A DNA stretch of 63,445 bases, filler included, from Diploschistes diacapsis (taxonomy: Eukaryota), in assembly GCA_023645945.1 (NCBI GenBank). It is 23 parts of 23 records of this genome, joined end to end, with 100 filler letters (N's around TTAATTAATTAA, not from the genome) between each part and the next. Parts side by side here need not be neighbours in the genome. Positions count along the whole stretch, not along the records: positions 52,634 to 54,356 come from JALAIB010002689.1; positions 54,457 to 56,176 come from JALAIB010002690.1; 21 more parts are not named here. One strand, given 5' to 3'. A program made the position numbers and the translations under genes. Below, one piece after another: positions 41,573 through 63,336 of the stretch. Every line of letters begins with the position of its first letter. Position 1 is the first letter of the stretch. The notes beneath the pieces are model-generated. The model saw only the letters and a list, made by a program, of their open reading frames with translations, had not been told where the DNA came from and ran no database searches.

Positions 41573-41673
41573 NNNNNNNNNNNNNNNNNNNNNNNNNNNN
41601 NNNNNNNNNNNNNNNNTTAATTAATTAANNNNNNNNNNNNNNNNNNNNNNNNNNNNNNNNNNNNNNNNNNNNG

Positions 41674-43669: not shown

Positions 43670-44123
43670 TGTTACGATCTAAGTAACTAGGTGGTAGTTA
43701 TTTAATACTTTATAGCTGATCGGGTCTAACCTAATTATTCTTTATATATAATTTAATTATGATGATATCGGTTACGTGATAAGTAAAAAGCCTTGAAGGC
43801 TATTTTATTTTTTATGGATAGAACGGGAGAACGGTAGTTTTATTTATCTATTAATTTATTCCGCTAAGGAGTAGTTGGTTATATAAGAACGTCGTTATGG
43901 TTTTTATGAATTCTGGTATATTTATTTTTATAGATATTCTTAATGATTGCTCGGGATCAATTTATATTCGTTATTTCTATTTTTAGAGAGTAATCTTTTT
44001 AGAGATCAGAATAGACCTGTTACCGATCTACTTCTTCTCCTGCTTGCATTCTTCTTCTAATAGAGACCAAACCTATCTTGATCAATACCTCGTGTCTATA
44101 TTGTAGAGATAGAGATTATAATA
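43670..44123 (+). mobile_element. family C 3' LTR
   Basis: Preceded by the PPT AAAGGAAGGGGATAG; matches 41674-42126. Confidence 0.85.
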
Positions 44124-44145
44124 TTATGTTTAAAATATATAATAT

Positions 44146-45230
44146 TGTAAGGCCAAGCAAGGAGCATGCCAATAGTCGGACAAGCGGCACTCAGGGTCTT
44201 GGCTTGCGGGTACTTGAAGGGGGATTTTGCCCTTCTTACTCTCTTCTCTTCTTTAATAATTAGTTCTAGCATGAATTTGCCCTACGTGCAGCCATCTTGC
44301 CATATTGTCGTATTCCATCTTTTATAGTTCTAATTACTTTACCTTTCTTAAAAACGACGATCCGACAAGATAACACGTTCTTCGCACCGTAGACGCAGGA
44401 TAAATTCACGTAATTAAATTAAAATAGAAGAAAGTGAAAGAAAAGAAAGAAATAAACGATCTAGAATTATTTTATTTAATCAAGAGGATTCAGATCATAC
44501 CGAGCAATAAGAACGAGATTTGTAATCTAAAGGCAAAACACCAGCAGGCGAATCGTTAAAGTAAGAATATGGTTTCGAATCTGCATTAAAGGATGCACCA
44601 GAAACAATAAAAAACATACTACTAAAAATAAGACAAGATATAAAGCTTAAAGAAAGCCAGATAATAGAAGCGAGAAAAAATACTTTCGTCGAGAAAACAA
44701 AAAGAATTGTTGTTGAAGCAGCATTAATAGCCGAAATGATACACAAGCGACAAGCAAACCAGAATCATCCAGATGTCATAAATCGCTACCGCGATATCAA
44801 ACCAGATAAACTACCACCCTTTTATAAAAAAATTGTTCAGGAACATAACCGTTAAATGATAAATATAGAAAGTATATTTATTATATCATATAAGTATTTT
44901 CTCAACGATAAAACTAAGATACGTTTCGCCATGTAATCGCTTACTAGCAAGATTGAAGAAGCATGGGTTCTATATTAAAAGAATAAGAACTTTTCTGATT
45001 TCACATGGGATTATTTCAAACTATTTTTATTAAATAGAATCAAGGACCCTATCAATCGCTCGCTATCAGCCTATTAAAACTAAGAATTAATAAAACAGGA
45101 TTTCCATCAATCGGTTCAGAGTTTCGAAGCATATTATATCATACTAAAAGAACAATTAAATAACAAGCTACCGGATATAATAAAGATATCAATATTCATA
45201 ACCAAACTTCGTCCAGAACTCTAGCATGAA
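44146..45230 (+). mobile_element. family D 5' LTR (44146-44326) and RIP-mutated gag
   Basis: 181-bp LTR, then a decayed frame NRYRDIKPDKLPPFY...DKTKIRFAM*SL...FTWDYFKLFLL.RIKDPINR...HQSVQSF resembling retrotransposon gag. Confidence 0.8.
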
Positions 45231-46021
45231 NNNNNNNNNNNNNNNNNNNNNNNNNNNNNNNNNNNNNNNNNNNNTTAATTAATTAANNNNNNNNNNNNNN
45301 NNNNNNNNNNNNNNNNNNNNNNNNNNNNNNAAGAAACCTTAAGGGCTTATAATTATAATAAGATAAAATTTATTTGTTTATATGGCTATTCGGCTGTCTA
45401 CTAGCTCTTTAACAAGCTTGCTTTTTTGTTTGTTTATTAGGTGCTTTCTTGCTTGCGTGTTTGCTTTTCTATATGTTAATTTACTTTTCTATGTGTTAAT
45501 TTGCTTACTTTATGCTTTATTGTTTGTTTAATTTTATAATAGATCTTCTTGCTTGTTCTTCTATTTGTTTATCTGTAATTGACTTCTTGCTGGTGGTAAC
45601 GAGACGGGAAAAAAGAAAGGAAAGAAATGAGAGGGACGGACGTGCTACTGGTTATACCTGTCTAAAGGAACATTAACGGATGGTATAAATATTACAAAAG
45701 ATAAGAATGTTTTTGGAAGGACATTTACGAATGGTAAAGATACGATAGAAATTGGGGATATCTTTGGATAGTTACCGCCTTTCTGTCCTATCGTGATTCG
45801 AGAGAGTAGGATGTAGGAAAATAGGTTCAGGAACATTATTACGTTCAAAAATATAGTTACGTCGAGAAAAGAATATTAAGGATAATAAACTTCTAAATAT
45901 TTCGATTATTTAAAAAATATAGAATTATATTGAGATATAGATAACCGGATAAAGATTTTTTATTAATAAGATCTATATAAAGTTCGTTATAGGGCAGCGA
46001 ATTATCGAAAGGAGGGTCGTA

Positions 46022-46257
46022 TATAAACATAAAAATAGGCGGTAGACTTAATGAAGGTGGTCCTTATAGGGTAGTTCCATTTAAGGAGGCCTGCTAGGTA
46101 GCTCTAGACAAAAAAATGCATCCTACACCTCACAAATATCCTATCTAGGTATGCTGTTGACTACTAGATCCCATTATATTCCCCTACTACACCACCTACG
46201 ACTACCTACCTACTACAGCAAGGGAAGTCTCCCTAGACAGCGCGCCTTGTGTTTATA
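46022..46257 (+). mobile_element. family B 3' LTR
   Basis: Preceded by the purine tract GAAAGGAGGG; the upstream 200 bp are shared with 48987-49183. Confidence 0.8.
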
Positions 46258-46604
46258 CTATTATAGCCGCTTTTTTAAAATAAGGATATCCATATATAAA
46301 TAAATAAAATCTTCGTTAATCCGAATAATTATTTATAAATATAACAAACTAACCTTTATAAATAAAACACGATAATTAAAAAACTCATATCCCAGATTAA
46401 TAATTAAAAAAAGGCTTATAAAAATAAAGCCCCTTCGAACCCTCGTCCGCTATAATAGGTCTAGACTAGGTCCTTATACTAAATATTAACCTATAATATA
46501 ATTAATACTAGATTTAGGCCTAAAAATTTCGAAAAAGAAGAAAATAACGAAAAGATAATAGAACGTTTTTTTATTCAGTTATACGAGACCAATTATTAGG
46601 ATAT

Positions 46605-46825
46605 ATTTTGGGCAACGCATGTATTGAAGTCTAGATATCTAGAGATCTAACTAGAAGGAATAGTCTACATGTAAACTCTTATATCAATAAGATCTACTAA
46701 GCCCTATGGACTTATATTACTCCCGATTAAGATTAACAGGAACCCCAGTAGGTTCAACCGAACTGAACCTGAACCTGAAGTTCAGCTGAACTTCCCAGCC
46801 ATGCATTCTATCTGTCTACTTAATA
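46605..46825 (-). mobile_element. family H 3' LTR
   Basis: Homologous to 7603-7839; PPT GTGAGGGAG on the minus strand. Confidence 0.75.
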
Positions 46826-47159
46826 CTCCCTCACGAGCGGAACCATCGGCATGTTTATTTAATCTAACTAAATACCTTCTATATTAATCTAAATTCTTTA
46901 ACGAATATATCGTGTTTAGCGTAATTTAATGATTTCGTTAATCCGTCGGCAATTATTTTATCTATAAATATATAAATAATATTAATACGGCCTCGTTTAA
47001 CTAAATCCCGTATATAATGATAAATAATATCGATATATTTTAACCTATCGTTGATTCTCNNNNNNNNNNNNNNNNNNNNNNNNNNNNNNNNNNNNNNNNN
47101 NNNTTAATTAATTAANNNNNNNNNNNNNNNNNNNNNNNNNNNNNNNNNNNNNNNNNNNN

Positions 47160-47395
47160 TTTTTTTTGCTTACGTAATATATTAGTAAAAAAATGATTGG
47201 CCTCGCCATCTTCGCCAGCTTTCGCCAGTTTCGCCAGTTTCGCCGGTTTCGCCAGTTTCGCCGTGTTTCGCCAAACCTTTTGGCGAAAGTTGGCGAGTCG
47301 TTTGAACGCATTATCTGTCGCCCACCTCGCCGGTTTCGCCAGTTTCGCCAACCTCGCGGATTTTCGCGGTGTTTCGCCGACAAAAACTTTTCGTG
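47160..47395 (-). repeat. family G GGCGAAAC tandem array (second copy)
   Basis: TTTCGCCAG/TTTCGCCGG units; homologous to 5220-5418. Confidence 0.75.
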
Positions 47396-47399
47396 ATGT

Positions 47400-48245
47400 A
47401 TTAATAGGATCCGTAGCGAATTAACTCGAATAGTAAGAGTAAATATTTCATCGAAATCGATCTTTTATCTTTGCGAGAACCTTTTTGCGACTAATCTGGC
47501 CCTGAACCCTTCGATGTCTTTATTGGAATTATACTTTTCGATATTGGTGAGTTCAGGTAGTTTAAATAGTTCAGTCTTATTCTAATTCAGTAACAAAAAG
47601 TCGATTTTTTTCTTTACTACTGCTTCCCATTCTTGCCCGAAGATTGGATTATTTACGGCCTTTTTATAATTCCTTGGAATATTAACACGCGTCGGTTTTG
47701 AATCAACGTCGCTCGTTATTTCCTATTCAATAGCTATAAGCGCCATATAACTTTTTAATATTTTAATTAATGAGAATTACTCGACATCCCGTTGTCGTTT
47801 ATTAGTAACGGCATTCGTGTTATATAATTCTTTAATACCCTAAAAATTCATAATCGTTAAAACCTCGTTCGTGTTATCTATTACTTAAGAATCCTGTATA
47901 CTAAACGATATTAACATGGCGTTGATAGGTATTACATACGTAATTAAATTATCAATAACGTGTTCAATACTCGTTATTAACGCAAAAGGCTTTAATAGTA
48001 TATTCGGTTAAATAAATTCAGGTTCAGGTTCAGTTTCACGTATTATTCTTTTCCTAAAAACCTCGACCTGCAAGAATCTCCTCACTAACCGTCGGCCATC
48101 CTCATCTAATTCGGGTTAATCATAGGGAACGAGAATAGAAACCCTTAGGATGCTATAATCTACCGTAGGTCCAGATAATAAAGATTTAGTATCGTTTAAC
48201 TAAACCTTTACCTTTATCGTTATTACGTCTTTAACGCCTTCGATA
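47400..48245 (-). pseudogene. RIP-inactivated Ty1/copia reverse transcriptase N-terminus
   Basis: PRNYKKAVNNPIFGQEWEAVVKK...IEGFRARLVAKRFSQR.KIDFDEIF (RVT_2 KARLVA.GF.Q..GIDF.E.F motif). Confidence 0.85.
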
Positions 48246-48252
48246 TTAGATA

Positions 48253-48886
48253 ACGTGTTTCACGGGGATTCCGGCCACCCCCAGATTCCGGCCACCTTAA
48301 ATCACTACCGCCAATATTCTACGGTTTTTAAATATAACCTGTTCGTCGTAATTAGAATCTAATCAATCCCAATCGAATCTATCCTCTTTTTCTTTATCCT
48401 TCTCGATTTCAGAAACGCGACGACGTTTTTTACGCGTTATAAATCGTTTCGAAACTATCCGACTCGATTTAATTCAAATTATTATTTAAAAACTTCGTCT
48501 ATATTAAACATAAAACGATCTTTTAATTCAATTCGTTTATTTAATTTACGTTTTTTATAATTATTAAAAAACGTTTTTTACTTTCGGTTTTCTTTACGAA
48601 ACGTTATAAACTTAATATGCGTCGATTTAAGTATACGGGTTACTCGACTCGAATAACGTCGAATCGGGTTAATTAATTCTAAAACGGCTCGTAACGTTTA
48701 ATTAAATTCTTTATTATCCTTTCGCAGTTCGGTCATATTTAATAAAGAATTATATAATAAAAATAAATCTAAATCGAATTGATTCGATGTTAAAAAAGGG
48801 CTATAAAATGAAAATAAAAGGATCCGATAAATCGAATAAAGTTTATTAAACACGGTTATAAAATTAATAAACTATAATTCAGTATT
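48253..48886 (-). mobile_element. pogo/Fot1 transposon right end with RIP-mutated transposase C-terminus
   Basis: TA + ACGTGTTTCACGGGGATTCCGGCCAC..CAGATTCCGGCCAC TIR; minus frame FRKENRK*KR...KKRKLNKRIELKDRFMF resembles Fot1-family C-termini. Confidence 0.7.
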
Positions 48887-49183
48887 NNNNNNNNNNNNNN
48901 NNNNNNNNNNNNNNNNNNNNNNNNNNNNNNTTAATTAATTAANNNNNNNNNNNNNNNNNNNNNNNNNNNNNNNNNNNNNNNNNNNNGTTCAGGAGTATTA
49001 TTACATTTAAAAATATAATTACATCGAGGAAAGAACATTAAGAATAATAAACTTTTAAATATTTCGATTATTTAAAAGGTATAGAATTATATTAAGATAT
49101 AGATAACCGGATAGAAATTTCTTGCTAATAAGATCTATATAAAGTTCGTTATAAGACAGCGAACTATCGAGAAAGGAGTCGTA

Positions 49184-49406
49184 TATAAATATAAAAATAG
49201 ATCGTAGATTTGGTAGGGGTAATCCTTATAAAGCAGCTCCATTTAAGGAGACCTACTAGGTAACTCTAGACAAACAATGCATCCTACACCTCACAAATGT
49301 CCTACCTAGGTATGCTGTTGACTACGAAATCACACTACATTCACCTACGACTACCTCCCTACTACAGCAAGGTAAGTCTCCCTAGACAGCGCGACTTGTG
49401 TTTATA
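49184..49406 (+). mobile_element. family B 3' LTR
   Basis: Homologous to 46022-46257 with the same upstream flank. Confidence 0.8.
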
Positions 49407-50600
49407 ATATAAGATTAATACGGTAACTAAAGGACGCCCTATTAAATAATAAAAAGATGCATCTAAACGAAAAAATCTTTTAAATCCGAAATTTGACGAA
49501 CGACGAAGGATATTAAAAAAAAAGACGATCGAAGAACAACCGTTCCCATAAAATAAGAACGTTAAATAAAAAAGATATATACGACCCGCTATTATCGCCC
49601 TATAACCTACTATATCTAATAAGACGGAAAAACGTGAACCGGATATATAAAAAACCATCATAAAAGATACCGAAAAACCCAAAAAAATAAATCAAAAAAT
49701 CCAAATAATTCCACCCAACGGAAATACACCGGGAAGGATTTTAATAAATCGTCCCCGCGTTCCCGCCGTCCGAAAACCAAGAATTTCAAAAAAAGCAGCC
49801 ACTAATCTATTAAAAGAATGAACTTTCAAGATTACTAAAGGCACTAAAATCAAGATTACCCTAAAAGAAACCTTTCAAACAAAAATCATACGCTTACTTC
49901 AAAAAAAATTAAAAAATCATACCGTCGAAAAAAATACTCGCGCAAAAGATCCGAAACCGGAGAAATCTATTATTCTACGCATAACCTATCTGTTAAATAA
50001 TTTAACACGTATAGTATCAATTCCAAACAATTAATAAACATAATAAACCTATAATTACAAAATATCATATATTCGGTTACTTATTCGAAAACAATAATCA
50101 CGATCGAAAACTATCGAATTCGCATATTACTTAATAACGATTCAGAAATAAATATAATAAAAAAATATATAATAAATCAATTAAACCTAACGATCACCCC
50201 TTACAAAAAAGTTTCTTTAATAAATACCAATTCAGGAAAAACTACTATAATAAATATTATAAAAAACGTTATTATATCGGTCGAAACTATTACGGTTCTA
50301 TAATTCTTTTTAATAATAGCTCGAATTAACAAACCGCTTATCTTAAGAACTTCCTATATGTCTATAATTGCTATATAGGCCAGCCATAAAGAAAATAAAT
50401 CCGTTAAGATCACGATTACAGACCCAGCATCTAAAAGATAAGCCGTTTTCGTTAAAACACACGGGTCCAACAAAAAGATTAAAAAGTTATCAGACATCCC
50501 GAACAATAAATAATCTAAAATCAAGATCCAGGATCAAAAAAACGAATCGTAAGGACCCTAGCTGAGGAAGGTCCTTCTACCGCATATCTCGAAAAACGGA
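49407..50600 (+). pseudogene. RIP-mutated gypsy gag-protease region ('family K'); other copies at 46258-46604 and 52890-54356
   Basis: LLNNDSEINI / LFNSDSEVNI read as RIP products of the retropepsin L(L/F)DSGSE(V/I)N motif, followed by PLILRT (LILG); long colinear homology among three contigs. Confidence 0.65.
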
Positions 50601-50810
50601 AATTAACGGTAAAAGTTTTTCATTTATTTTATTCTTATAGTTTTTATTTGTTAGATTTAAAATCGAAAGACAGGCAATCTTTAATATCAAAAGATTCTAA
50701 AGATTTATATNNNNNNNNNNNNNNNNNNNNNNNNNNNNNNNNNNNNNNNNNNNNTTAATTAATTAANNNNNNNNNNNNNNNNNNNNNNNNNNNNNNNNNN
50801 NNNNNNNNNN

Positions 50811-51198
50811 GTTTATACAAATAATAATAATTATCTTTATCGGTCTTTTTTATATAATTCAATCCTTTTTTAACGATTTTGAAATTAAAGGTCTTAACCA
50901 CACCTATAATAAAAAAGAAGCTTTATTTAATATACGAAGATATATACTTAAATATATTTAAAATATCGATCAGGCCCTTTGTGCGATAGAAATAGTAAAT
51001 ATAGTTGTCTTAGAAGGGAAGTTATAGTAATATGTTGAAAAGTTAAAGATAGTAGATTATCTTTATATTTCCGAAGGACGTTTTCCCGAAACAAAGAAGG
51101 TCTTAAAAATAATAAATTGGTTTATTTCTCGAGATATAATACAAGTAAGGGGATTTTTAGAAGTATATGTTTATTATCGCATTTGGATTAAGGATTTT
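50811..51198 (+). pseudogene. RIP-mutated gypsy RT C-terminal fragment
   Basis: QVRGFL(G>E)VYVYYRIWIKDF motif. Confidence 0.75.
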
Positions 51199-52200
51199 TG
51201 TTGGACAAGCTCAAATTTATTAGTGGAGAAGAAGATGCATTGCAAGTAGCTAGGTGGGCAGCGAGCCCTTTATAGCTACTACAGGTGGATGCCTAATGGC
51301 ATCGTGGGCAATGGCGTCACAAGCGACACCGGCAAGTACAAGTCTAAGCGACACGCAAGCGACACCTCCTAATAACAATAACAGCCTGTAACCATAGCTG
51401 CTATAACTACTACAATATCCCCGGACATAATAAACTTATGCCCCCATAAATAATGTCTTTAATAAATATTAAAATAATAAAACAAACCCTTGCAACTTTG
51501 ACCCAAAAGCATCTTAATAATATATCCTATATTACTCTTTTTTCTCTTATTTCCAAAGCAATTCTGTTTTTTTATCAAGCTTGCCTCCGTCTCGTAGACA
51601 TAGCCCTAATCCTATACCCCTAGTAATCCAGCCTCTACAACGTCGACGTACCTTACTTCGAACTCGGCGATTCGGTCCGCTAAATATCGTTATAATTCTC
51701 GCTCGATAATCCATATATCATCGATAATATCGTATCCTAACCATCGTATTAAATACTAAACATTCCATCCACGTCCTTTACGTATGCGGCGCTTAACTAA
51801 CAGTCGTTCTACTTCGAACTCTTCGTCGATTCTTATCGTCACAAATAACGACGGCAAGAATCGACGGCGATAAGAATCGCTCGTTAGATTTAATACCGGT
51901 TCGAAATATACGATATTAATAACATCGTAAATGCGGTAATAATCCGATAATTATAATCTATAAATTAATTTATCAATACGTTTTAAAATCTTAAAAGGTC
52001 CGGTAAGCTAAACGAAAAGCTTAACATTAATTACGACAAACAGTTTATATTTTCGATATAAACGTAACATTACGTAATCTCTAACTTTTATAAAGTAAGC
52101 CTTATAACGCTTATCGTAGGTTTCCTTTATAACAATCTTAGTTATGGTAAACGCGTCTTTAACGTCTATTATTTCTAAACGTGGCTTAATTAGTTTAATT
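51199..52200 (-). mobile_element. Chromovirus 3' end: integrase/chromodomain relic and family I 3' LTR (51199-51417)
   Basis: Minus frame GPFKILKRI.KL.YRL, DVINI..FEP, EEFEVERLLVKRRIRKGRGW..YLIRWLGY; PPT CCGGGGA; LTR related to 42668-42890. Confidence 0.8.
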
Positions 52201-52633
52201 ATTTCACGGCGTCGGTACTGTTATTCTTATAATCGTGTATCGCGAGTCTATAGGATCGGTATTACATCGCGAGTTTCAGGTCTAAATACTGGCTTATTAA
52301 CAGATACTCGATCCTGTCCGTCTATATCTAGAGCAAATATCTTTACTTGCGCTGATCTTCTTTCCGAAAAATACTTTCTATCATTTAAATCATCCGGTTC
52401 TGTTAATATATCTCGCGAAATGCTATCTCTTGTTGGCCTAGGTACCTCTATCGTAGATATATATATCTTTTTTATTCTTATAGGTATCCGTATTTCTATT
52501 TCAGGTATTCGTTTTTATGCCGTAGCCTAATTANNNNNNNNNNNNNNNNNNNNNNNNNNNNNNNNNNNNNNNNNNNNTTAATTAATTAANNNNNNNNNNN
52601 NNNNNNNNNNNNNNNNNNNNNNNNNNNNNNNNN

Positions 52634-52889
52634 GTAAATACACGGATACGGATACCGTAATAAAAATTTTCTCGATACGGACATTAACACGGATATTACA
52701 TTATAATAAAAATACGGACACGGATACTATAATTAAAAATTTTAAAATATTGATATTGACACGGACACTGCACTTCCGTGAATCCACGGACACGGACACC
52801 GCAGCTAAAAAATCTAAAACACGGACACTGACAGTGTCAGTGTCCGTGTCACTGACACGGCCGTGTCAGTGTCAGTGACGGCCAGCCTA
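52634..52889 (+). mobile_element. family F hAT-like MITE right end
   Basis: ACACGGACAC repeats ending GACGGCCAGCCTA. Confidence 0.75.
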
Positions 52890-53177
52890 GCCCTATAACC
52901 TGTTACTTTTACCAAGAAGATGATTATTATAAGATACGTTATCCACTATTATAGCCGCTTTTTCAGAGTAAGGATATCTATATATAAGAAAACAAGATCT
53001 TCGTCGGTCTGAATGATCACTTATAAGCATAATAGGTTAACCTATATGGGCAAGGTATAATAATAGAAAAACTTATGTCCTAAGTTAATAATTAGAAAAA
53101 GACTTATAAGAATAAAACCTTTTCGAACCCTCGTCCTTTATAATAGGTTTAAACTAGATCTTTATATCAAATGCCAG

Positions 53178-53469
53178 TGTCGGAATATAAACATGAACTA
53201 CTGCTTGCTAAAAGGTGCGCATCTTTTGGCGTAGTGGTTTAGTTCAATAGGTTATGAGCCCGGGTAGCGCACTGCGCTGCATCCCCACCCGTTTAGTTCA
53301 GAGGTCTGAGGTCGAGTCCCGCTCACGGCAGATTTTGATCTGACTGGAAAGAACATAGGTAAACAGTAAGAGCCGCAGAGCCATGTTTACGGGGATGTGT
53401 CGGAATATAAACATGAACTACTGCTTGCTAAAAGGTGCGCATCTTTTGGCGTAGTGGTTTAGTTCAACA
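53178..53469 (+). mobile_element. Complete 292-bp TRIM with tRNA-like Pol III promoter boxes
   Basis: 72-bp direct repeats 53178-53249 and 53398-53469 (TG...CA, one C>T difference); TSD GCCAG at 53173-53177 and 53470-53474; PBS GGTTATGAGCCC at 53250; PPT GGGGATG before the 3' LTR; A box TGGCGTAGTGG in the LTR; AGAGGTC..AGGTCGAGTCCC in the internal domain. Confidence 0.92.
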
Positions 53470-54547
53470 GCCAGCGTATAATGTGGTTAATATTAAATAT
53501 AAGCCTAAAGATTTCGAGGAAGAAGAAAATAACGAAAAAATAATAGAACGTTTTTTTATTTAATTATACGAGGTCAATTATTAGGATATATATAAGACCA
53601 ATGCGGTAATTAAGGGACGTCTTATTAAATAATATAAAGATGTATCTAAACGAAGAAGCCTTTTAAATCCGAAATTTAACGAACGTCGCCGGGTATTAAA
53701 AGAAAAGACGATCGAAGAACAACGGCTCTTACAGAATAAGAACGTTAGAAAAGAAAAGTACGTACGGCCCGCTGCTGTCACTTCATAGTCTACTATATCT
53801 AATAATACGGAAAGACGAGAACCGGATATATAAGAAATCATTATAAAAGATGCCGAAAAACCTAAAAAGGTAAATGGGGAAGTATAAATAGTTTTATTCA
53901 GCGGAAATACACCGGGAAGGATTTTGATACATCGTCCCCGCGTTCCCGTCGTCCGAAATTTAAGAATTTCAAAAAAAGGAACTACTAATCTATTAAAAAA
54001 TAGGCTCTTAAGATTGCTAAAAACATTGAAATCAAGATTATCCTAAAAGAAACATTTTAAACAAAAATCATGCGTTTGTTTTAAAAAGAATTAAAGAATT
54101 ATACCGTCGAAGAAAATGCTCGCGCCGAAGAACCGTGACCGGAGAAGTCTATTTATTTTACGCATAATCTATCCGCCAGATAATTTAACACGTACAATAT
54201 TAATTCTAAATAATTAATGAATATAATAATCTTACAACTATAAAATATCATATATTCGGCTATTTATTCGGAAGTAGTAATCACGATTAAAAATTATCGG
54301 ATTCGCGTACTGTTTAATAGCGATTCCGAAGTAAATATAATAAAGAAATGTATAATNNNNNNNNNNNNNNNNNNNNNNNNNNNNNNNNNNNNNNNNNNNN
54401 TTAATTAATTAANNNNNNNNNNNNNNNNNNNNNNNNNNNNNNNNNNNNNNNNNNNNATTTAAGATTTTATTAATTAATAAACATTTCGCTTATAATTCGT
54501 CGGCTTATCGATTTATAAATATAATATTCTTTATAATAAACGTCGTA

Positions 54548-55824
54548 CAGTACTAGTCCAAAAGTAATGGTCCCTCGGTTAAATCGGTGCAAATAAACAA
54601 TAAATGCCTACTATTATTTTTATAATAATGCCACCATATCGTCGTTTGAAGCTCTGGGAGCGCTCTGAGCTTATAGGCGTATATAAATCAGGTGCTATCC
54701 TAAAAAATACAGCTAATAGGCTAAATATTCCTTATTCTACAGCCAAAAAGACAATAGCAAAGGTTTTAGAGCGTAATGAAGATCAAGATGATCTGAAGCG
54801 CTCCGGAAGATCTTAAACAACGTTCGAAAATCAAGAAAATAAGCTTTATCGAACGGCCAAACGCTATTTAGAATCTAAATGGTTTAAATTGCTCGATATC
54901 TCGTTTATTAGTAAAAATATAATGCGCCGAAGATTTCGCGACATCGATCTTTCTTTTAAAAAATATAAGATACGGTGGAAGCCACATTTAGAGCCTGAAG
55001 ATGCGGAAAAACGTCTAAAACACTTCCAAATACACCGAACTTAACGCGCCGAGAATTTTATTAATATTTAGTTCATCGACGAGTGTTTCATAGTAATAGG
55101 AAGTAATAAAATACGAAAATAGGTATGGAGATATATAGGAAAATAATGGCTTCCCGATCACCTAGCAAAAACGGTTAGAAACAAAAAAAGTATCATACTT
55201 TGAACTAATATGAGAACCGATAAACGCGTCGTGTGGTGTTTTTTCGAAGATTACTATATAAATGGACGAAATGTTACCGCCGAGGCTTATTATATTTTAC
55301 TAAGAGATATTTTGCCTTAAATCTACGAACCTGGGTAAGGTTTTTTACAGAATAATACTTTTATACACACTGCAAACGCTGTTAAAACGCTTTTAGAGAG
55401 TTTCGGCGTCTAAATTCTCGATTATTCACTATATAATCCAGATTTGAACGCTATAGAACATTTTTGACCTAAATTAAAAGAGAAGGTATTTCGGCTTTAT
55501 CTAGAGCTTAAAATAATGCGTGGGAATAAAGATAATAAGAAACAGGCTTTAAAAGCTGTTATTATCGAGGTATTTAATCAAATTACGATAGATAGGAAGT
55601 AGGATTTGCCTGCTCGATTAATCTACTCGATATCTACGCGAATTCAGGCTGTATACGACGCGCAGGGGTGGTAAATAAAGTATTAATAGATACTACGAAT
55701 AAAGGGCATCAAAATGATCTAAAAAGCGTATTTGTAGGACATTATTTGGGTACGTATCGCATCTCCAAAGTTGGTGATGTCTACTATAATTTAGGTAGGG
55801 ACCATTACTTTTGGCACGTGACTG
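54548..55824 (+). mobile_element. Full-length Tc1/impala-like DD34E transposon (1277 bp), RIP-inactivated
   Basis: TA flanks on both sides; 28-bp TIR CAGT-N6-CCAAAAGTAATGGTCCCT; transposase from ATG 54628 to ~55686 with FIDEC, LQ(D>N)N..IHTA, 34 residues, then PDLNAIE; multiple RIP stops. Confidence 0.92.
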
Positions 55825-57444
55825 TAAGTTAAACGAGTCGTTAAAATACCGTTATAAAAATATAAACGAGTCAAGATCTATTTCGTATACCGGATATAAA
55901 CGAATTCCTTCAACTCATATTTCGAAATAACGATACGCTAACTTATTAATAACGACCCGATATTACGTCGCTATTCTTATCTTTCTAGAACGAATGTCCT
56001 TATCTTTAGAAATAATAAGGACGTCTTCGTTTCCAGATATGGTAATAAAGATTTAATAAGAATAAAATAAGTAATTAACGAGAATAGGAATAAAGAAAGA
56101 AAAGGAAAGATAAAGAAAATAATACCTTTATATTAAACCCATGCTAATAAGAATTAATAATAATAATATATTAAAGNNNNNNNNNNNNNNNNNNNNNNNN
56201 NNNNNNNNNNNNNNNNNNNNTTAATTAATTAANNNNNNNNNNNNNNNNNNNNNNNNNNNNNNNNNNNNNNNNNNNNGTTCGAGAGAGTCCAAGTAAATCC
56301 AAGCCCCTCGCGTTCGACTTCCCTCCTCGGCACTTGACGGCGGGCCCTCTGCCCGCCGTCCAAACCGTTCGGCGTTCGTTCCGCGCTTCGCAGATTCCCC
56401 ACCTACCGGCGCGGGGCTTTGTCCCCCTCCTGCTTACGCTTTCCGTCCCCAGGGAGGAGGGGGGCAGTTCTGTGGAGGTAGAAAGAGCGTGTGTGCTTAT
56501 ATGGTAAATATGAGGGCGAATGGAGGGGGAAGAAGGCAGGAGATTGGCGGTTGGAGAGGGAGGATTAGGAGGCGGAGAGGCCGTAGCCGGAGAGGAGGAG
56601 GGTGGCCGGGGTTGTTGTGGCCATGGTCTTTTTGAGGATTTCTTTTTTCTTTTTAAGAGGGATGGAGAGAGCGGTGGTAGAGGTGGGATGGGAGATCCGG
56701 GATGGGTGCGTTGGGGCGATTGGATGGAGGAGGACGGTGTGCAGACCTTTTTAACCCTGTTTGAAGAACCATATCTTCTTGATTTATGGGTAGTTCAAAG
56801 GGCGACCGGAAAGTATAAGCTAGCCATCACAGGCTTCGGAACAGATGCGGTCGAGGCCCGACGGATCTTGATCAGCCGTACCACTGGAAAGCTGGTTCGG
56901 GGAACAATAGGCGGCTCAGTTCAATCTTTCGTACATGCTGATACATGCTGTGTACGCGCATTAAACTGTACCAAACGCATCCACAACCGTCGGGCCAAAT
57001 GCTGGACAGGGTATTTTGATTGAGTTACGCTCAATTGAAGGAGGTTTGAGATGCACTGGCTTTCTTCCTGGAGCTGAAGTTGAATCAAGCTTCTTACATA
57101 AGAAATATCCCTGATCTTGGCAATTTTTGGATCAATATGAGCGCACCAGAATTGAATTCCGCTTCCTGGGTCAGACCGAACCACTGTTACGCAGTCTCAA
57201 TTCCAGGCGTTCGTGGTAGCCATATCATCTCCCAGAAAAGAGTCGCAGCAGGAGACATTTCCATCTCCCTTCCCGTTTGCTGACCCCTCAACGGCGGATA
57301 CGGATACGATAGCTTGTGCCAATACTTCCGCCAATGCCTAGACTCAGCTCATAACTGCTGGGCCTTGATCGTTTGGAAGCTATTGCGGTCAACTCCAACT
57401 GTCGCGATATTTTTCAAGCTCCAAAACTTACTCATCGTACCACC

Positions 57445-57995
57445 ATGACCGACGTGCGTTCCCTCCTCCGCAACGAGCGCCTCTCGCGCCGCATCGACCA
57501 TCCCCACGCCTCATACTCCTCGAGCGGCACCCTAACCTGCACCATATGCCGCACGGCGCTAAAAGCCGACTCTCTCTGGGAGCCGCACATACGGGGCAAG
57601 CCGCACCGGCAGAATCTACAGTCATTACAAGAAGCCAAGGCATCGGAGTCCAATAGCGTCCCTGCTAAGCGACCGGCCGAGAAGACCCTGCGGGCCGTCT
57701 CGGCTTCGAACGGGAAGAAGCGTAAGGCGGACGATGACGAGGAGGAGGAGCCAGAGACAGAAACGCACAAGAAGTCTAAGACGACAAATGGGTTAGCTTC
57801 CAGACCCTTTGACGGGCGGACAAACGAAGAGAAGGCTCTACAATCGGCGCAAGCAACCTCTGAACCGCAGCCGGAGCCAGAGCCGCAGCCGGAGCCGGAG
57901 CCGGAATCAGCGTCACCATCCCACCCCAAAAACCAACCCGCATCCACCTCCGCCCTCCCCGCTAACTTCTTTGACAACCCCACCTCATCTACAAC
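57445..57995 (+). CDS. ZNF830/CCDC16-like C2H2 (matrin-type) zinc-finger protein, 3' truncated
   Basis: MTDVRSLLRNERLSRRIDHPHASYSSSGTLTCTICRTALKADSLWEPHIRGKPH (CxxC-x12-H-x5-H) and a later LPANFFD motif. Confidence 0.75.
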
Positions 57996-58504
57996 NNNNN
58001 NNNNNNNNNNNNNNNNNNNNNNNNNNNNNNNNNNNNNNNTTAATTAATTAANNNNNNNNNNNNNNNNNNNNNNNNNNNNNNNNNNNNNNNNNNNNGACGT
58101 AACGATTGCGTTAAATCTATTTAACGATTCTATAAATTTTTATTAGATTAAGAAAGTTTTACGAGCTCTAAAAGAAAATTATATAATAAAAAATAATCTA
58201 AATTAATAATCTCGATGGATATACGCGGTTAAATAATAGTCAGAATCGTTCCGCGGGGTAAAATTTTAATTACTCGTATACATATAATAGGTATTAAGCC
58301 TGTTTCTCGCTATCCGTCTTTACAATTTCATATAACTAAAGACTCTTTACGTATTTCGATAAATAATTTAATTCCTTTTAATCGAGAAATGCGTTAAAAA
58401 TTAACTCGATAAATCGTATCCGCTCAGGTAATATACCGCCGCTTAAACGTAAAAAATACGCCAATATTAAGCGGTTAAAGGATATACGAGCAATAAATAA
58501 ATAT

Positions 58505-59570
58505 TGTAAAGGGTAGAATAAGACAATGTGGCAAGATGACTGTACGCAGGGCAGATTCATGCTAGGACTAATTACTAAAGAAGAGGAGAGAGTAAGAAGG
58601 GCAAAATCCCCCTTCAAGTATTAGCAAGCTAAGACCCTAAACGCTGTTTATTCGATTATTAATATGTTTTTAACTTGGCCTTACAATTATTTCCTTTTTT
58701 CTTGCTTTAACTTCCTAAAGTTACCTTTATGGTCCTTTCTTTGTCTATTAAGATAGGTTAAATAATTAATTTAATCTATATCGTTACCATCAAGATTCTT
58801 TATATAGGTCGCGTTTAACTAACACGTTAGATCCGCGTTTTTCGCCTAAGTTACGTGTTAATACCTTGTTTTTGCCTTTATATATATATTCCAAAATTCG
58901 TTAATAATTAATTATAGTATAAATAAACTTCAATATCGACGCTGATTACTTATAAATTAAATGATTATTAAACTAAAGATGTTCTTATTCGCATATTAAT
59001 TTTATTATAATATTTTTATCTTATTCGTGATATTCTTATATTTTATTTCTTTATCTTTTCAATTTTCATTCTTTTAATTTATATTATAGATCCTATCGGT
59101 TAATTATTATCGTCGCTTGTTCTTACTTTTCGTTCGTCGTCTACTTTTGCTTCTCATTGTTATTTATGTCTCGCCTCTTACACCTTCTTAATTAAAATGG
59201 TAGAGCATATCTTTAACACGTTCGAGCAAGCCCCTAACACGTTTTTAACGATGTCTGCTATTGGGGGCGATAAGTTCATAAATAAGCTCGTATAGGCGAT
59301 AAAGGGGGATTTTGTTGTCCGTCTTTAGCGCCGTGGTAGATCTCGTAAGCGGTATATGTTGATTATTTCTTTGCCTATGCTTAGTTCTGATTCTTATAGT
59401 TTTTTTTCGACTGCCACCACGTTTCCAATAAAGCCCATAATAGAGTTTATTATTACGTCTTTTTAGTCGTTTCCGGATCTTAACTTCTAACCGAGTTCTA
59501 ATATATCCGCTTTGCACCCATATTTCTTATTTATTAATCGTTTATCTAGAAACACCGCTACCTGAAAAAC
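58505..59570 (-). mobile_element. family D 3' LTR (58505-58685) and 3' internal region
   Basis: Homologous to 36738-37760. Confidence 0.8.
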
Positions 59571-59574
59571 TATA

Positions 59575-59813
59575 ACGTATATGTATAGGGAGCGAACATT
59601 CATAGCGAGCGGATACCCCCCATCCGAATTTACGAACTTTTAATTTTTATATTAATTTTCTACGTTTACGATTATATAATCATCTTCAATTAAAAATAGA
59701 ATTAGAATGAAATTTTAAGTTAGTAAATAAAACTTAAATCTTAATATAAAACGCGTATTTTAAATATATAAAAAAATTCGTATGACGTTTATTGTTCGAC
59801 GCGATAATCGTAT
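59575..59813 (+). mobile_element. pogo/Fot1-type element left end
   Basis: TA + ACGTATATGTATAGGGAGCGAACATTCATAGCGAGCGGATACC; the downstream decayed HTH start resembles 7356. Confidence 0.55.
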
Positions 59814-60365
59814 NNNNNNNNNNNNNNNNNNNNNNNNNNNNNNNNNNNNNNNNNNNNTTAATTAATTAANNNNNNNNNNNNNNNNNNNNNNNNNNNNNNN
59901 NNNNNNNNNNNNNGAAGAAATCTCGAGAAAAAATTAAACGTCTAATATAAAATACGTTAAATAAAATAATTAATTAATAATAATTAATATCTCGTTACGA
60001 ATTTCGAAAATATTTTCAATATCTTACAAGAATTTTATTAATTAAATCCCGAAAAGATGAAATTTCTATAACTAATAACGCCTAAAGATAGATAATACAC
60101 GTCAATAAAAACTATAGACGGGAACGAGCTTTTAAAATAAAGCAATATCGATTATTACGACGACCACGTTCTTTTATAAAATCTAAAAATATATTTAATT
60201 AAAAACGACGTTAAAAGGGATTTAAAAAAATAGAAACATTTATTCCGAAAAAATAACGGGTATCCTTTTAAATAAATTAAAAAAAAGAAATGAAAATCGA
60301 GGTAAAAATTGACTAAAAAGAGCATCGCGTTTATAAAAGACACAAGCATCTAGAAAAGAAGGTAG

Positions 60366-60736
60366 TGAAACAGCCCAGCCCAGAGGCCTGCCAAGCTAAA
60401 GGGCTTGCCAAGCCACGGCAGGATCAATGCCCCAGGTGCTTGCCAAGCCACGACAGGGTCAATACCCAGGTGCTTACCAAGCCACGGCAGGGTCAATACC
60501 CAGGTGCTTGCCAAGACACGGCAGGATCAGAAGGTGGCTATATAGACGGGTAGTCCCCGAACCCCGATAATCTGGCACCCACATTATTTAACGGTGCCCT
60601 CCTCCCACCTAAATAGTTTCTTCTTCAGCTTTTCGAATCGAGACCTTTTACCTGCAGATGCCCAGCTACACGTAATCCTTCCGGATCAGGCCCACCCCCC
60701 GGTAGTGTAGTATCCCATTCCTGCGCTGGCGTTTCA
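60366..60736 (+). mobile_element. LTR 'family J' (371 bp) with 34-bp internal tandem repeats
   Basis: TGAAAC...GTTTCA termini, preceded by the purine tract AGAAAAGAAGGTAG; related minus copy at 62005-62297. Confidence 0.75.
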
Positions 60737-61360
60737 AAGAGATTTATTTATTAATATTTTAAATTAACTGGACTTCTTATCAACCTATTTAAAGGTAATA
60801 AGAATAAGAAGAAGTAAAGAATTCTTATATGGAACGAATCTGAAACGTAAGCTTTCCGTATGTTAAAAAAGAAATTTACGGAGGCTTTTATATTTATTTA
60901 TTTTAATCTTAAATTATATATTCGCGTAGAAATAGATGCTTCGGGTTTTATTTTAATAGATATAATATTATAATTATATAAAGATAATTAGTAATATCTT
61001 ATAATATTTTATTCTCGAAAGATGAATTCAACGGAATATAATTATGAAACGTATGATCAAGAATTTCTAACGATAATAATAAACTTTAAATATTAAAGAT
61101 ATTATTTAAAAAGCTTTAAGCACGTAATTAAAATATTAACAGACTATAATAACCTAAAAGATTTTATAAAGAAAACGGCATTAACCGAGCGATAAATAAA
61201 GTGGGCCTTAAGGTTAGCCGCTTTTGACTTTGTTATTCATTACAAATCAGAAAAGAATAATTCTACAAATACGTCTTTAAGGCGACCAGATTATTTCGAT
61301 ATTGATCGATAAATCCAAGATTTATTACTTACGCTTTAACAAAAGTTAATAAAATTAAAC
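60737..61360 (+). pseudogene. RIP-mutated gypsy RT-RNase H
   Basis: RVE.DASGF, FYSRKM, NYETYDQEFL, LTDYNNL, RRPDY motifs. Confidence 0.85.
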
Positions 61361-61729
61361 TTAATTATTATAAAAAACACGAGTTAGAAACCTGCGGTAA
61401 GTATACCGGTAACTAATTAATTATAAATAATGAAACATACCCGTGATAAAATAGACGTAATGTTTTAAAAATTTAAAAAATTTTAATCTAAGAATAGAAT
61501 CTTAAAGAAACTTGATTTTAATCGGCAAACTCGAGATAAACGCGACGTAATAGAATGATTATATCTTATTATTAAGATTATTAGTTGTAAATAGCTCGTC
61601 CCACGTGCCTATATAAATGAACTTATAATNNNNNNNNNNNNNNNNNNNNNNNNNNNNNNNNNNNNNNNNNNNNTTAATTAATTAANNNNNNNNNNNNNNN
61701 NNNNNNNNNNNNNNNNNNNNNNNNNNNNN

Positions 61730-61927
61730 TATAATATCCGTGTTAATATCCGTGCCGAGAAAGTTTTTGCTGCGGTATCCGTGTTAATATCCGTGTCGAG
61801 AAAATTTTTATTATAGTATCCGTGTTAATACTTTTACTATAATATAATATCCGTGTCAGTGTCCGTGCCGAGAAAATTTTCGCGGTAGTGTCCGTGTCAG
61901 TGACCGTGGCACGCAACGGCCAGCCTA
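61730..61927 (-). mobile_element. family F hAT-like MITE left end
   Basis: Reverse complement of the 40010 end: ...GTGACCGTGGCACGCAACGGCCAGCCTA. Confidence 0.75.
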
Positions 61928-62004
61928 AAAGTCTTGAATATTTAATTCGATTAACGTTTTAAATTCTCGTTATAAATACGAAGATAAAGCGAGCTTTTCG
62001 AATA

Positions 62005-62297
62005 AGAAACGCCAGCGCAGAAATAAGATATTATATTATCGGGGGCTGGACCTGATCCGGAAGGATTACATATAGCTGGATATTTATAAATAAAAGGTTT
62101 CGATTCGAAAAACTAGAGAAGACTATATCTAAATGGGAGGGTAATACAATAAATAATAATGTAAATGCCAGCCCTATCAGGGTTCGGGCACAACCCGCCT
62201 ACACAGCCACCCCCTAACATCCTTGGCACGGCTGGCAGCGGCTACCTGTCATGTGACCCTGCCATGGCTTGGCGGGCATCTGGGCTGATCTCTTTCA
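62005..62297 (-). mobile_element. family J-related LTR
   Basis: GAAACGCCAGCGCAG...CCTGATCCGGAAGGATTAC is the reverse complement of 60670-60735. Confidence 0.7.
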
Positions 62298-62609
62298 CAA
62301 ACACGTTATTTAAAGAACGATCGGATCGTTTATCGTATTAAATTCCTTTATTTATTTTTTATTTTCGGTCCCTCCGGTTTTTTTATTTTTAAGATCGATG
62401 TAAATGATTTATCGTTAAAAAACGAATTAGACGAATTATTATTCGTGTCGTATTAATTTTTATTTTATTTAATTACCTGTATTTTACGATATGGTTTCGT
62501 TATTTATAATTAACGTAATATTTATCGAAATATTTAATTAAACGGCGGTATTTTGAAAAAAACGTGAAATCACGCCGGCGATATTCGGTATATCGCACGC
62601 GACGCGTAC

Positions 62610-62780
62610 TGTAACAGCGGGGGTAGTGCTTAATAGGTAGCGCTATCCCACTGAGCCAAAAGACTAACCACAATGCTTTCAGGAACCCCGATGCATTGTT
62701 TCCCTATTACACTATATGTAGGTGCGCAGCTGTGGCAGCAGGGGGACCTGAACCCCGGTGCGCACACTGCGGGTGTTACA
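62610..62780 (-). mobile_element. 171-bp solo LTR with permuted tRNA-like halves
   Basis: TGTAACA...TGTTACA termini; TSD CGTAC at 62605-62609 and 62781-62785. On the minus strand the T-arm GGGG-TTCAGGT-CCCC lies near the 5' end and the A box TGGCTCAGTGG near the 3' end. Confidence 0.85.
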
Positions 62781-63336
62781 CGTACGACCGCGAGATTAAA
62801 TAAGACCGCGTTTATATACGAAGCCCGATGCGGTTTAATTTATTTAAATATAATACGCCCTCGTACGAAAGCAAGATTAATGTCGGGTAAAATAAAGACC
62901 GTATATTACGTTATATTATAAACGAAGCTCGTTAACTGTTATTTTTCGACGACGAGCCAGTCGTACGGACCCTTTTTTTCTTTTTTTCTTGTTCTTTCTA
63001 TTATAGCGCCGCCGCCGCCGGAGGCATGTAAAATATTATCGTTTTATGAATATATTGGTTTCGTACGTAGTAACGGAATAGATTTATATTATAAAAAATG
63101 TTCGTACGAATTAAAAAAAGGCCGAAAAACGGCCGTGCAGGGGTAAAAGTAGGATAATATAATTAAAATAGATTTAGCTTCGTATAAATAATTTAATATA
63201 AAGTTATAGGGCTTCGTACGGAATAGATTTAGCTCAAAAGTTCATTTAAAATTTAAATATTAAATTAAATACGGAAGCGCTCGATTTAATATAATTATAT
63301 TATAATGTAATGTTCTGCTTGGTGGTGTGTTCCGTT

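Follow-up and report, generated by a model that had tools for sequence, protein, structure and literature searches.

The window, by which we mean the whole 63,445-nucleotide stretch of DNA analysed here (filler included), comes from the Diploschistes diacapsis assembly GCA_023645945.1 and contains eukaryotic genes whose nearest protein clusters are from Ascomycota, with related sequence present in lichen and rock metagenomes. The 292-bp unit at 53178–53469 is a real non-coding mini LTR retrotransposon whose host is probably a lichen or rock fungus. A repeat search of the window returned direct repeats at 53177–53250 and 53397–53470 (74 nt, 99% identity, spacing 220); when the pentamer is counted as TSD, the LTRs occupy 53178–53249 and 53398–53469, are 72 bp each with 71 of 72 positions identical, and enclose an interior of 148 bp. 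The sole difference is a T/C at LTR position 71, the 5′ copy reading TG...TA and the 3′ copy TG...CA. A 32-nt word of the LTR occurs exactly twice in the window, compared with no occurrence in 100 shuffles. The features of the locus are as follows.

53173–53177, unstranded: first TSD copy, GCCAG (from the sequence; one pentamer stands at the paralogous empty site)
53178–53249, plus strand: 5′ LTR, 72 bp, TG...TA, with T at position 71 where the 3′ copy has C (repeat alignment)
53186–53191, plus strand: TATAAA, LTR positions 9–14 (ATAAA unchanged when aligned with three related minis)
53190–53244, and again 53410–53464 in the 3′ LTR, plus strand: predicted 24-bp LTR hairpin, positions 13–67 (folding)
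53224–53227, also 53444–53447, plus strand: LTR run of TTTT (the same across five mini LTRs)
53227–53237, also 53447–53457, plus strand: A-box-like TGGCGTAGTGG (consensus match; 3′ arm of the LTR hairpin)
53250–53264, plus strand: PBS (its first 12 nt coincide with the terminal bases of a published probe antisense to yeast initiator tRNA-Met)
53264–53280, plus strand: 7-bp hairpin with triloop, GUAGCGC ACU GCGCUGC (folding)
53288–53319, plus strand: tRNA-like block CCCGTTT..AGAGGTC..GGTCGAGTCC (B-box-like motif at 53310–53319)
53323–53336, plus strand: acceptor-like TCACGGCA, then GA, then TTTT (53333–53336) (not kept in related minis)
53389–53397, plus strand: polypurine-tract-like ACGGGGATG, adjoining the 3′ LTR (relatives have TTACGGGGGAG and GTGGGAG)
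53398–53469, plus strand: 3′ LTR, 72 bp, TG...CA (repeat alignment)
53470–53474, unstranded: second TSD copy, GCCAG (from the sequence and the paralogous empty site)
46437–46540, plus strand: empty paralogue of the host repeat, with a single ATTAA at 46485–46489 (gapless alignment)

The unit thus has short TG..CA terminal repeats, a length well below 1.5 kb, a PBS, a purine tract (short and interrupted, GGGGATG), a TSD with evidence of insertion, and no coding capacity, the longest ATG-initiated ORF overlapping it being 38 aa. Repeat alignment, empty site, and ORF scan together bear out the sequence-only reading of this DNA, which had described a complete non-coding TRIM-type element with two 72-bp LTRs, the TSD GCCAG, a PBS, and a PPT. 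The LTR folds into a hairpin of −24 kcal/mol (z −4.1 and −4.5), and none of 200 shuffles was equally stable. Across five mini LTRs RNAalifold gives a weak consensus (−3.5 kcal/mol, covariation term +0.36), which limits the established hairpin to the LTR of the 292-bp element's family.

The stretch at 46437–46540 aligns gaplessly to the left flank joined to the right flank minus one pentamer, with 81 of 104 positions identical and differences comprising 20 transitions and 3 transversions, and it carries ATTAA where the element site has GCCAG...GCCAG. A gapless empty paralogue with one pentamer shows that the unit truly inserted and duplicated 5 bp. In run X1, moreover, one contig skips from 53172 to 53470 and another from 53174 to 53472, 297 bases each. 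That the unit is no mobile element, and is instead a direct repeat produced by chance or replication slippage in AT-rich DNA, would fit the presence of just one copy in the window, but is very improbable given the precise empty site with its single pentamer, the X1 contigs that omit exactly 297 bases, the relatives found in three runs from three studies, and a PBS, purine tract, and termini that match those of Copia elements.

The element is also distinct in composition, with a G+C content of 0.47 compared with 0.32 and 0.28 in its flanks. RIP indices are 1.12/0.68 for the AT block, and the substrate index of the element is 1.08; the element is un-RIPped and set in an older, RIP-like degraded repeat. 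RIP has a lower size threshold for repeats. A unit of 292 bp with 72-bp repeats is probably too short for RIP to see, from which a G+C content of 47% amid DNA of 30% would follow. The intact element within RIP-like DNA hence suggests that very small size may permit escape from RIP in fungi.

Relatives occur outside the window. Runs X1–X3, from three studies, contain contig pieces 80–95% alike, and three of these span LTR, interior, and LTR without gaps at ∼85–91% likeness (X1, 53218–53415 and 53232–53453; X2, 53223–53427). The same LTR–interior–LTR layout is common to relatives in three other sequencing runs, and the related minis L015, L065, and L091 are 379–389 bp long with LTRs of 64–65 bp. 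Searches of genome contigs with an interior 20-mer and an LTR 22-mer gave no match, nor did searches of viral contigs with three patterns from the element. Nine variable places in the element are among those listed for the run reads and the A and B boxes are free of them, a count that comes from a partial list and is no test of conservation.

The primer site and its junction with the LTR connect the element to a much larger group. The PBS begins with the first internal base, and its GGTTATGAGCCC is identical to the final 12 nt of probe oPA1732, described as specific for yeast initiator Met-tRNAi; at up to one mismatch this 12-mer occurs three times in the window, compared with 0.28 expected. 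The junction TTCAAYA followed by GGTTATGAGCCCGGG is present in at least 121 metagenome stretches, with 84 distinct LTR ends among the matches listed. Nineteen of the listed stretches hold both LTRs and span 379–6014 bp; six of the nineteen have identical 5-bp TSDs, their LTRs mostly start with TGTTG (the LTR of our element starts with TGTCG), and their purine tracts read ..GGGAG. All four long elements in which ORFs were scanned (L075, L045, L063, and L061) encode Copia domains (Retrotran_gag_2, rve, or RVT_2), and L075 has an open frame of 1513 aa. No member of the element's own family is found among the at least 121 junction stretches as listed, BLAST matches being confined to element positions 58–106, and the listed stretches gave no BLAST hit to the window at 1e-10. 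Within the window, two other copies of the junction (41147–41172 and 2419–2445) are both degraded, an intact Copia element was not found, and tblastn with the L075 polyprotein returned one 57-aa remnant at 46882–47052.

The cis signals common to the element and the Copia elements are the LTR end, the PBS, and the 5-bp TSD. The junction common to at least 121 stretches, combined with the Copia identity of all four elements scanned, points to a Copia-dependent TRIM, and we assign a probability of roughly 85% to the reading that the unit is a non-autonomous, TRIM-type element that Ty1/Copia elements mobilize in trans in a probable ascomycete. In such a cycle, an RNA starting in the 5′ LTR and ending in the 3′ LTR would be packaged by Copia Gag, tRNA-iMet would prime minus-strand synthesis with its 5′ half, in the manner of Ty5 and copia, the plus strand would be primed from the purine tract, and the DNA copy would be inserted by Copia integrase.

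The sequence-only reading had gone further and proposed that a tRNA is split into two halves, one at the LTR 3′ end and the other in the interior, with the PBS standing where the anticodon arm would be. The last resemblance has its source in the PBS itself, since the PBS is antisense of the initiator tRNA-Met anticodon arm. Several of the proposed motifs lie where they had been placed: TGGCGTAGTGG fits the A box TRGCNNAGTGG exactly in both LTRs, and AGAGGTC, TCACGGCA, and the TTTT run at 53333–53336 are all present. The interior motif is B-box-like. Compared with GGTTCGANTCC, GGTCGAGTCC (53310–53319) has one deleted T, or two mismatches if read as AGGTCGAGTCC; the motif is without one T of the T54/T55 pair, and its T-stem pairs at 2 of 5 positions by eye. 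A canonical B box stands at the matching place in related minis, as GGTTCGATTCC in L015 and AGTTCGATTCC in L065. In shuffles of LTR plus interior, an exact A box arose in 15 of 20000, a B box within one edit in 134, and both in 1, a test that is post hoc.

Recurrence among other elements strengthens the case for the interior motif. The tRNA-like block aligns to L065 with a score of 31, reached by 2 of 500 shuffles. Sense B-box motifs within 250 nt after the LTR are found in 5 of 72 nonredundant elements with the same PBS and antisense motifs in 0 of 72, among the matches listed; shuffles give a mean of 0.34, and none of 500 reaches 5. The motif-bearing elements represent independent families (L015/L065, L016, L062, and L036). 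As judged from these comparisons, the interior carries a degenerate, tRNA-gene-like block, consisting of a variable-loop-like AGGTC and a T-arm/B-box motif, that is common to the related mini family.

A complete tRNA is a different matter. ARAGORN at default settings found no tRNA in the window or, with introns allowed, in the element excerpt, and made no call on 1515 virtual deletions. Rfam gave no match at E≤10 on either strand of 53170–53480, which leaves the element without 5S rRNA or a hammerhead ribozyme; in L015, L091, and L016, which with the 292-bp element made up the Rfam mini set (L065 left out), the same threshold returned nothing except an 11-nt T-loop fragment in L015 (E 9.7). 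The putative 103-nt RNA is no more stably folded than its shuffles (z 0.28). The split tRNA finds no support in these analyses. At an 80% threshold, ARAGORN made one tRNA-Ser call, which lies off the layout of the sequence-only reading and was rejected, 111 of 2000 shuffles being called as well. A tRNA gene or tRNA-derived SINE was likewise rejected, as neither ARAGORN nor Rfam detects a cloverleaf and LTRs, a PBS, and a PPT are present.

How, then, might the tRNA-like block be explained? One account, plausible if somewhat short of even odds, is that it is a relic with no promoter role: part of a tRNA gene or of a primary transcript made by Pol III would have entered an ancestral mini element, perhaps through a template switch inside the particle, and would now be drifting or kept for another reason, e.g., as a bare TFIIIC site. 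The degeneracy of the motif in the element, where the T is deleted, compared with its canonical form in L015, favors this account, as does the end of the block in a short trailer and TTTT, not CCA. In addition, none of the four minis in the Rfam set matches a covariance model, and the interior fold is unremarkable (z −0.99). Against a relic, the strand-specific enrichment in L015/L065, L016, L062, and L036 suggests that the motif is kept for some function, and the block is the best-conserved part of the interior relative to L065 once the PBS and purine tract are set aside.

The second account is the one put forward by the sequence-only reading, a tRNA-type Pol III promoter split between the LTR (A box) and the interior (B box), with transcription only from the 5′ LTR of an intact element, which would make the element a SINE-like LTR parasite and a variant of TRIMp3. 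The joint occurrence of an exact A box and a B box within one edit favors it, as do the canonical counterparts in L015 and L065, the sense-only B-box enrichment, and a TATAAA ∼30 nt upstream of the start implied by the A box. Precedents also exist in Cassandra, Helenus, and Ajax (PMC10886601, in excerpt) and in the far-apart TFIIIC sites of yeast SNR6 (PMC9136082, in excerpt). However, beyond the failure to detect a tRNA and the ordinary fold of the 103-nt RNA, the A box falls in a 9–13-nt LTR stretch missing from L015, L065, L091, and L016, is base-paired within the strong LTR hairpin, and occurs at up to one mismatch in just 1 of 72 other LTR ends, among the junction matches listed. In L015-type minis the best A-like motifs are located 3′ of the PBS, where a tRNA-type start would give an RNA without R-U5-PBS. 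One TTTT precedes the A box, downstream of the implied start, and another (53333–53336) precedes the purine tract; were T4 a terminator in the fungal host, a Pol III genomic RNA would be cut short at either run. The B box is missing its T, and neither TCACGGCA nor the internal T4 is conserved in relatives. Of the proposal, the motifs stand, and the promoter built from them is improbable.

The tRNA-gene-like motifs are real, and a Pol III promoter composed of them is a partly supported candidate. For the RNA of the element, production by Pol II has slightly better than an even chance, and a Pol III route of any kind to the genomic RNA is possible though on the unlikely side. A broader version, in which an ascomycete mini-LTR lineage (LTRs of 64–72 bp, total lengths of 292–389 bp) has a Pol III promoter spread over LTR and interior, is doubtful. 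In that lineage, a TATA-like box, the start, and a short R closed by the invariant TTTT would lie in the LTR, and the interior B box would recruit TFIIIC, with only the 5′ LTR of an intact element firing and solo and 3′ LTRs silent. If true, such a lineage would give Pol III-driven LTR elements a new architecture and, among fungi, their first example outside Basidiomycota. Literature searches on TRIMp3 and on Helenus, LTRs, and tRNA returned Kojima 2024 and two papers citing it, and no report of a promoter divided between LTR and interior, and those on TRIMs in Ascomycota returned only papers on rust fungi and bivalves.

The element sets the lower size bound for LTR retroelements that still work: repeats of 72 bp (64 bp in relatives), a half-tRNA primer site of 12–15 nt, and a short purine tract seem enough for Copia-type mobilization. 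The recurrent, strand-specific B-box motif is a testable candidate for a role of Pol III or TFIIIC in LTR elements beyond Cassandra and Helenus, and it calls for caution in the annotation of tRNAs and repeats in lichen-fungus genomes.

Among known systems, SMART/FRetro129 of grasses, the smallest reported TRIM, has the same total length of 292 bp (Gao et al. 2012, PMC3281118, in excerpt). Compared by description, the two share a non-coding structure, short repeats with TGT..ACA-type ends, a 5-bp TSD, a PBS and PPT, and a presumed Copia partner; SMART has an LTR of 85 bp, an interior of 122 bp, and a grass host, whereas our element has 72 bp, 148 bp, and a fungus, and the tRNA-gene-like motifs and half-tRNA (anticodon-arm) primer site belong to our element. 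The tRNA-based Helenus, named in the sequence-only reading, does exist (“TRIMp3,” 311–1263 bp; Kojima 2024, PMC10886601, in excerpt). Among fungi it is reported from Pucciniales and a few Agaricomycetes, all Basidiomycota, and fungal Helenus elements have 5-bp TSDs, use the iMet anticodon loop for priming, and are partnered by Copia; its transcription by Pol III is unvalidated, according to the same excerpted text. Helenus and our element are both TRIMs with tRNA-related sequence, a 5-bp TSD, a PBS complementary to a tRNA anticodon loop, and a Copia-like PBS region. The comparison that had been proposed with Helenus nevertheless separates them: each Helenus LTR contains a whole tRNA-like sequence with both boxes (PMC10886601, in excerpt), whereas the LTR of our 292-bp element, from a probable ascomycete, has at most the A-box match, and its B-box-like motif lies in the interior. 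As in our element, the primer site of Ty5 and Drosophila copia complements the initiator tRNA-Met anticodon stem-loop and not the 3′ end (via the excerpt of PMC10886601), but those elements are autonomous and ours is without genes. It differs also from Cassandra and Ajax, the 5S-type TRIMs, and from retrozymes, in having neither 5S rRNA-derived sequence nor a hammerhead ribozyme by Rfam. The yeast U6 gene SNR6 has an upstream TATA. As a Pol III unit with widely separated TFIIIC sites (PMC9136082, in excerpt), SNR6 is the nearest precedent for a promoter with its B box far from the start, but it is a cellular gene and not a mobile one.

The element at 53178-53469 is a real, well-formed and very small Copia-dependent terminal-repeat retrotransposon in miniature (TRIM). 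Re-reading the DNA bore out every coordinate, length and motif of the sequence-only reading: positions 53173-53474 hold 148 bp between two copies of a 72-bp repeat, with GCCAG on either side. A repeat search of the window returned this pair as direct repeats of 99% identity lying 220 bp apart (53177-53250 and 53397-53470), and the window contains a 32-nt word from the repeat exactly two times, against none in 100 shuffles. The repeats have TG...CA termini, the sole difference between the copies being a TA end in the 5′ copy, and the longest ATG ORF overlapping the element is 38 aa. The element is an insertion. The repeat family that flanks it has a second copy at 46257-46606, of which 46437-46540 aligns without gaps to the left flank plus the right flank minus one pentamer (81/104 identical; the mismatches are 20 transitions and 3 transversions), and a single ATTAA (46485-46489), derivable from GCCAG through transitions alone, stands where the element site shows GCCAG–element–GCCAG. 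Among contigs from three public sequencing runs (X1-X3), one X1 contig skips from 53172 to 53470 and another from 53174 to 53472, 297 bases each (292 + 5).

The window includes eukaryotic genes for a CHD1-like helicase, a PRP40-like FF-domain protein and Trs65, and the nearest protein clusters are from Ascomycota, with phylum known for only 4 members; runs containing parts of the element span three studies, including a lichen metagenome and a rock metagenome. The G+C content of the window switches between about 0.27-0.34 and 0.41-0.59. Composition is two-part, with 1-8000, 36000-56000 and 58000-63445 set against 8000-36000 and 56000-58000, and blocks of ~30% G+C interleave with gene-bearing blocks of ~50% G+C. 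The AT-rich block has dinucleotide indices of the repeat-induced point mutation (RIP) type (TpA/ApT 1.12, substrate index 0.68), and the GC block (0.67 and 1.26) has no RIP-type signature, the index thresholds being general background values. The element itself is 47% G+C with a substrate index of 1.08, between flanks of 28-32% G+C. Elsewhere in the window, a 1259-aa ORF without a Pfam match (30835-34614, plus strand) is embedded in sequence with strong AT skew (0.30-0.46) and internal repeats at 32220-32516; it is overlapped by long ORFs on the other strand, and ORFs overlap on both strands within 29850-36134. The region resembles low-complexity or repeat-rich coding sequence.

The interior of the element starts with GGTTATGAGCCC, a 12-mer identical to the 3′ end of oligo oPA1732, which a yeast study (PMC11230868) describes as detecting initiator Met-tRNAi specifically in Northern blots. 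The primer-binding site (PBS) is therefore antisense to the tRNA-iMet anticodon arm. PMC10886601 describes the same kind of priming for Ty5, copia and most fungal Helenus elements. Among metagenome stretches with the LTR-end and PBS pattern, L093 has a leader of which the others, including the GCGCACTGCGC hairpin of the element, resemble shortened versions. Its PBS is followed by ACGCTTCCACTGCGC, which reads as what we take, from yeast tRNA, to be the antisense of the initiator tRNA-Met D arm; the 5′ half of the primer may thus be matched over about 30 nt.

Scanning metagenomes for the LTR end joined to the PBS gave at least 121 stretches. The matches listed comprise 84 distinct LTR ends and include no member of the element's own family, BLAST matches being confined to element positions 58-106. 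Both LTRs are present in 19 of the listed stretches, with spans of 379-6014 bp (14/19 below 3.5 kb), LTR starts that are mostly TGTTG, a purine tract ending ..GGGAG immediately before the LTR and, in 6 of the 19, identical 5-bp duplications. Copia domains were found in 4/4 long elements with ORFs scanned among these matches, L075 having an open frame of 1513 aa in which Retrotran_gag_2, rve and RVT_2 follow the Copia order, and two shorter listed elements retain gag only. The window itself holds degraded junction copies at 41147-41172 (plus strand; ..TTAAATA abutting GGTTATGAGTCC) and 2419-2445 (minus strand; ..TTAAACA abutting GGTTATAAGCCC), decayed by transitions. No recognizable Copia genes lie beside these junctions, except a 57-aa remnant at 46882-47052. 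Both junction copies are members of a single older repeat family (2071-2636 resembles 41518-40936 at 74%), which may be the remains of a partner Copia. Arrays and palindromes of GACACGGACAC-type units occur at 52687-52880, just upstream of the insertion, and recur at 40010-40590, 61730-61910 and 63337-63445; because the metagenome stretch L118 has similar GGACAC repeats ahead of TTCAACA in its LTR end, these arrays may be part of a Copia LTR.

Contig pieces from X1-X3, 85-91% alike, run from 5′ LTR through interior to 3′ LTR (X1, 53218-53415, 28 differences; X2, 53223-53427, 19 differences; neither with gaps), and the mini layout therefore appears to be inherited rather than a one-off deletion. 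Related minis are found in three metagenome stretches:
L015, 5944-6332: mini LTR element
L065, 5695-6080, minus strand: mini LTR element
L091, 244-622: mini LTR element
These measure 379-389 bp, with LTRs of 64-65 bp, the shortest found in this analysis, and target-site duplications (TSDs) of 5 bp such as GATCT/GATCT. Their LTRs match that of the element at the ends, in an ATAAA close to the start and in a GTGCGCAT(C)TTTT block; the purine tract is TTACGGGGGAG in the three minis versus TTACGGGGATG in the element, and much of the interior is colinear in alignment. A canonical or near-canonical B box lies in the interior of this mini group. A further element lies on the reverse strand of L016, at about 530-1068 in reversed coordinates. 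It has a 68-bp 3′ LTR (981-1048, minus strand), but the position of the 5′ LTR is taken by 256 bp of mostly palindromic sequence, and CCCTG flanks both ends; its interior opens with a canonical A-box-like TAGCGCAGCTGG, CGTTCGATTCC follows 78 nt past the LTR, and Rfam finds no tRNA in it.

The LTR is predicted to fold into a 24-bp hairpin (positions 13-67, 5 G·U pairs), a feature that the sequence-only reading missed. Its energy is −24 kcal/mol versus −13 for shuffles (z −4.1 and −4.5; 0/200 shuffles equally stable), and its 3′ arm is the A-box match. Two variants frequent among relatives (A>G at LTR positions 23 and 35) would convert A-U to G·U pairs; the relatives' LTRs form weaker hairpins around the same GTGCGCA center (z −1.7 to −2.2), and the RNAalifold consensus over five LTRs is weak, so the hairpin stands for the LTR of this family only. 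Self-complementarity within the LTR allows its 5′ and 3′ copies to pair in full-length RNA, which could draw the RNA ends together and aid strand transfer with a very short R.

Pol II and Pol III readings each fit the geometry of the element. In the Pol III reading, TATAAA (53186-53191) lies about 30 nt upstream of the start that the A box implies, and the B box about 83 nt downstream of that A box. Transcription by Pol II is the reading we favor, at a probability of roughly 0.55; the same AT-rich box could double as a TATA box, in the 5′ LTR, and a polyadenylation element, in the 3′ LTR. Any Pol III route to the RNA appears doubtful. The invariant TTTT of the LTR could terminate RNA in the 3′ LTR, but in the 5′ LTR it falls a few bases past the implied start, and another TTTT (53333-53336) lies upstream of the purine tract.

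Still less probable, a minority reading, is the specific proposal of a tRNA-type promoter split between an A box in the LTR and a B box in the interior. The motifs themselves held up, the A box being exact and the B box one deletion off, and the two occur together in 1/20000 shuffles, a post hoc test. The interior block CCCGTTT..AGAGGTC..TCGAGTCC aligns with L065 (motif AGTTCGATTCC; local score 31, matched by 2/500 shuffles) and L015 (canonical GGTTCGATTCC; score 24, reached in 25/500), and not significantly with L091 (119/500). Sense B-box motifs (≤1 mismatch) lie 20-250 nt past the LTR in 5/72 nonredundant stretches among the matches listed (L015 and L065, which are one family, L016, L036 and L062), compared with 0 of 72 for the opposite strand in the same zone, a shuffle mean of 0.34 and 0/500 shuffles reaching 5; a control zone 250-1250 nt downstream in these matches gave 1 match in 36,000 bases. 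The interior B-box block is a tRNA-gene-like feature that the element shares with a related mini family. The A box sits within a 9-13-nt stretch absent from the LTRs of L015, L065, L091 and L016, and recurs within one mismatch in just 1/72 other LTR ends among the matches listed; neither L015 nor L065 has anything corresponding to TCACGGCA or the interior TTTT. The best A-like motifs of the L015 type lie downstream of the PBS, so a tRNA-type start there would yield RNA lacking R-U5-PBS. The 10-mer GTTTAGTTCA at the LTR end (53237-53246) is repeated in the interior (53291-53300), just before the tRNA-like block; no such repeat turned up in the related minis, and with a BLAST E of about 3 it may be coincidental.

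The two tRNA-like halves of the sequence-only reading gained no support from ARAGORN, which called no tRNA in the window, in the element region with introns allowed or in 1515 virtual deletions joining the halves, or from Rfam, which gave no match at E ≤ 10 in the element, L015, L091 or L016 apart from an 11-nt T-loop fragment in L015 (E 9.7). A lone ARAGORN call at lowered threshold was rejected, its layout differing from the one proposed and 111/2000 shuffles also scoring. Over the 103 nt from the A box to GGCA, the putative RNA is no more stably folded than its shuffles (z 0.28).

A literature search on TRIMp3 or Helenus with LTR retrotransposon and tRNA returned only PMC10886601 and two papers citing it. 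Fungal Helenus elements, as presented in the main text of PMC10886601, have TSD length, primer type and a Copia link in common with the element, but their defining feature, a tRNA-like sequence inside the LTRs, is one that the element lacks. It also falls outside their size range of 311-1263 bp, a comparison based on main-text figures to which Table S1 of that paper may add shorter LTRs, and outside their reported fungal range there (Pucciniales and a few Agaricomycetes). SMART/FRetro129, called the smallest reported in PMC3281118, is likewise 292 bp, made up of repeats of 85 bp around a 122-bp interior; the total length is equal, and the repeats of the element are shorter. The element is a TRIM by every structural test, and a new variant among known TRIMs.
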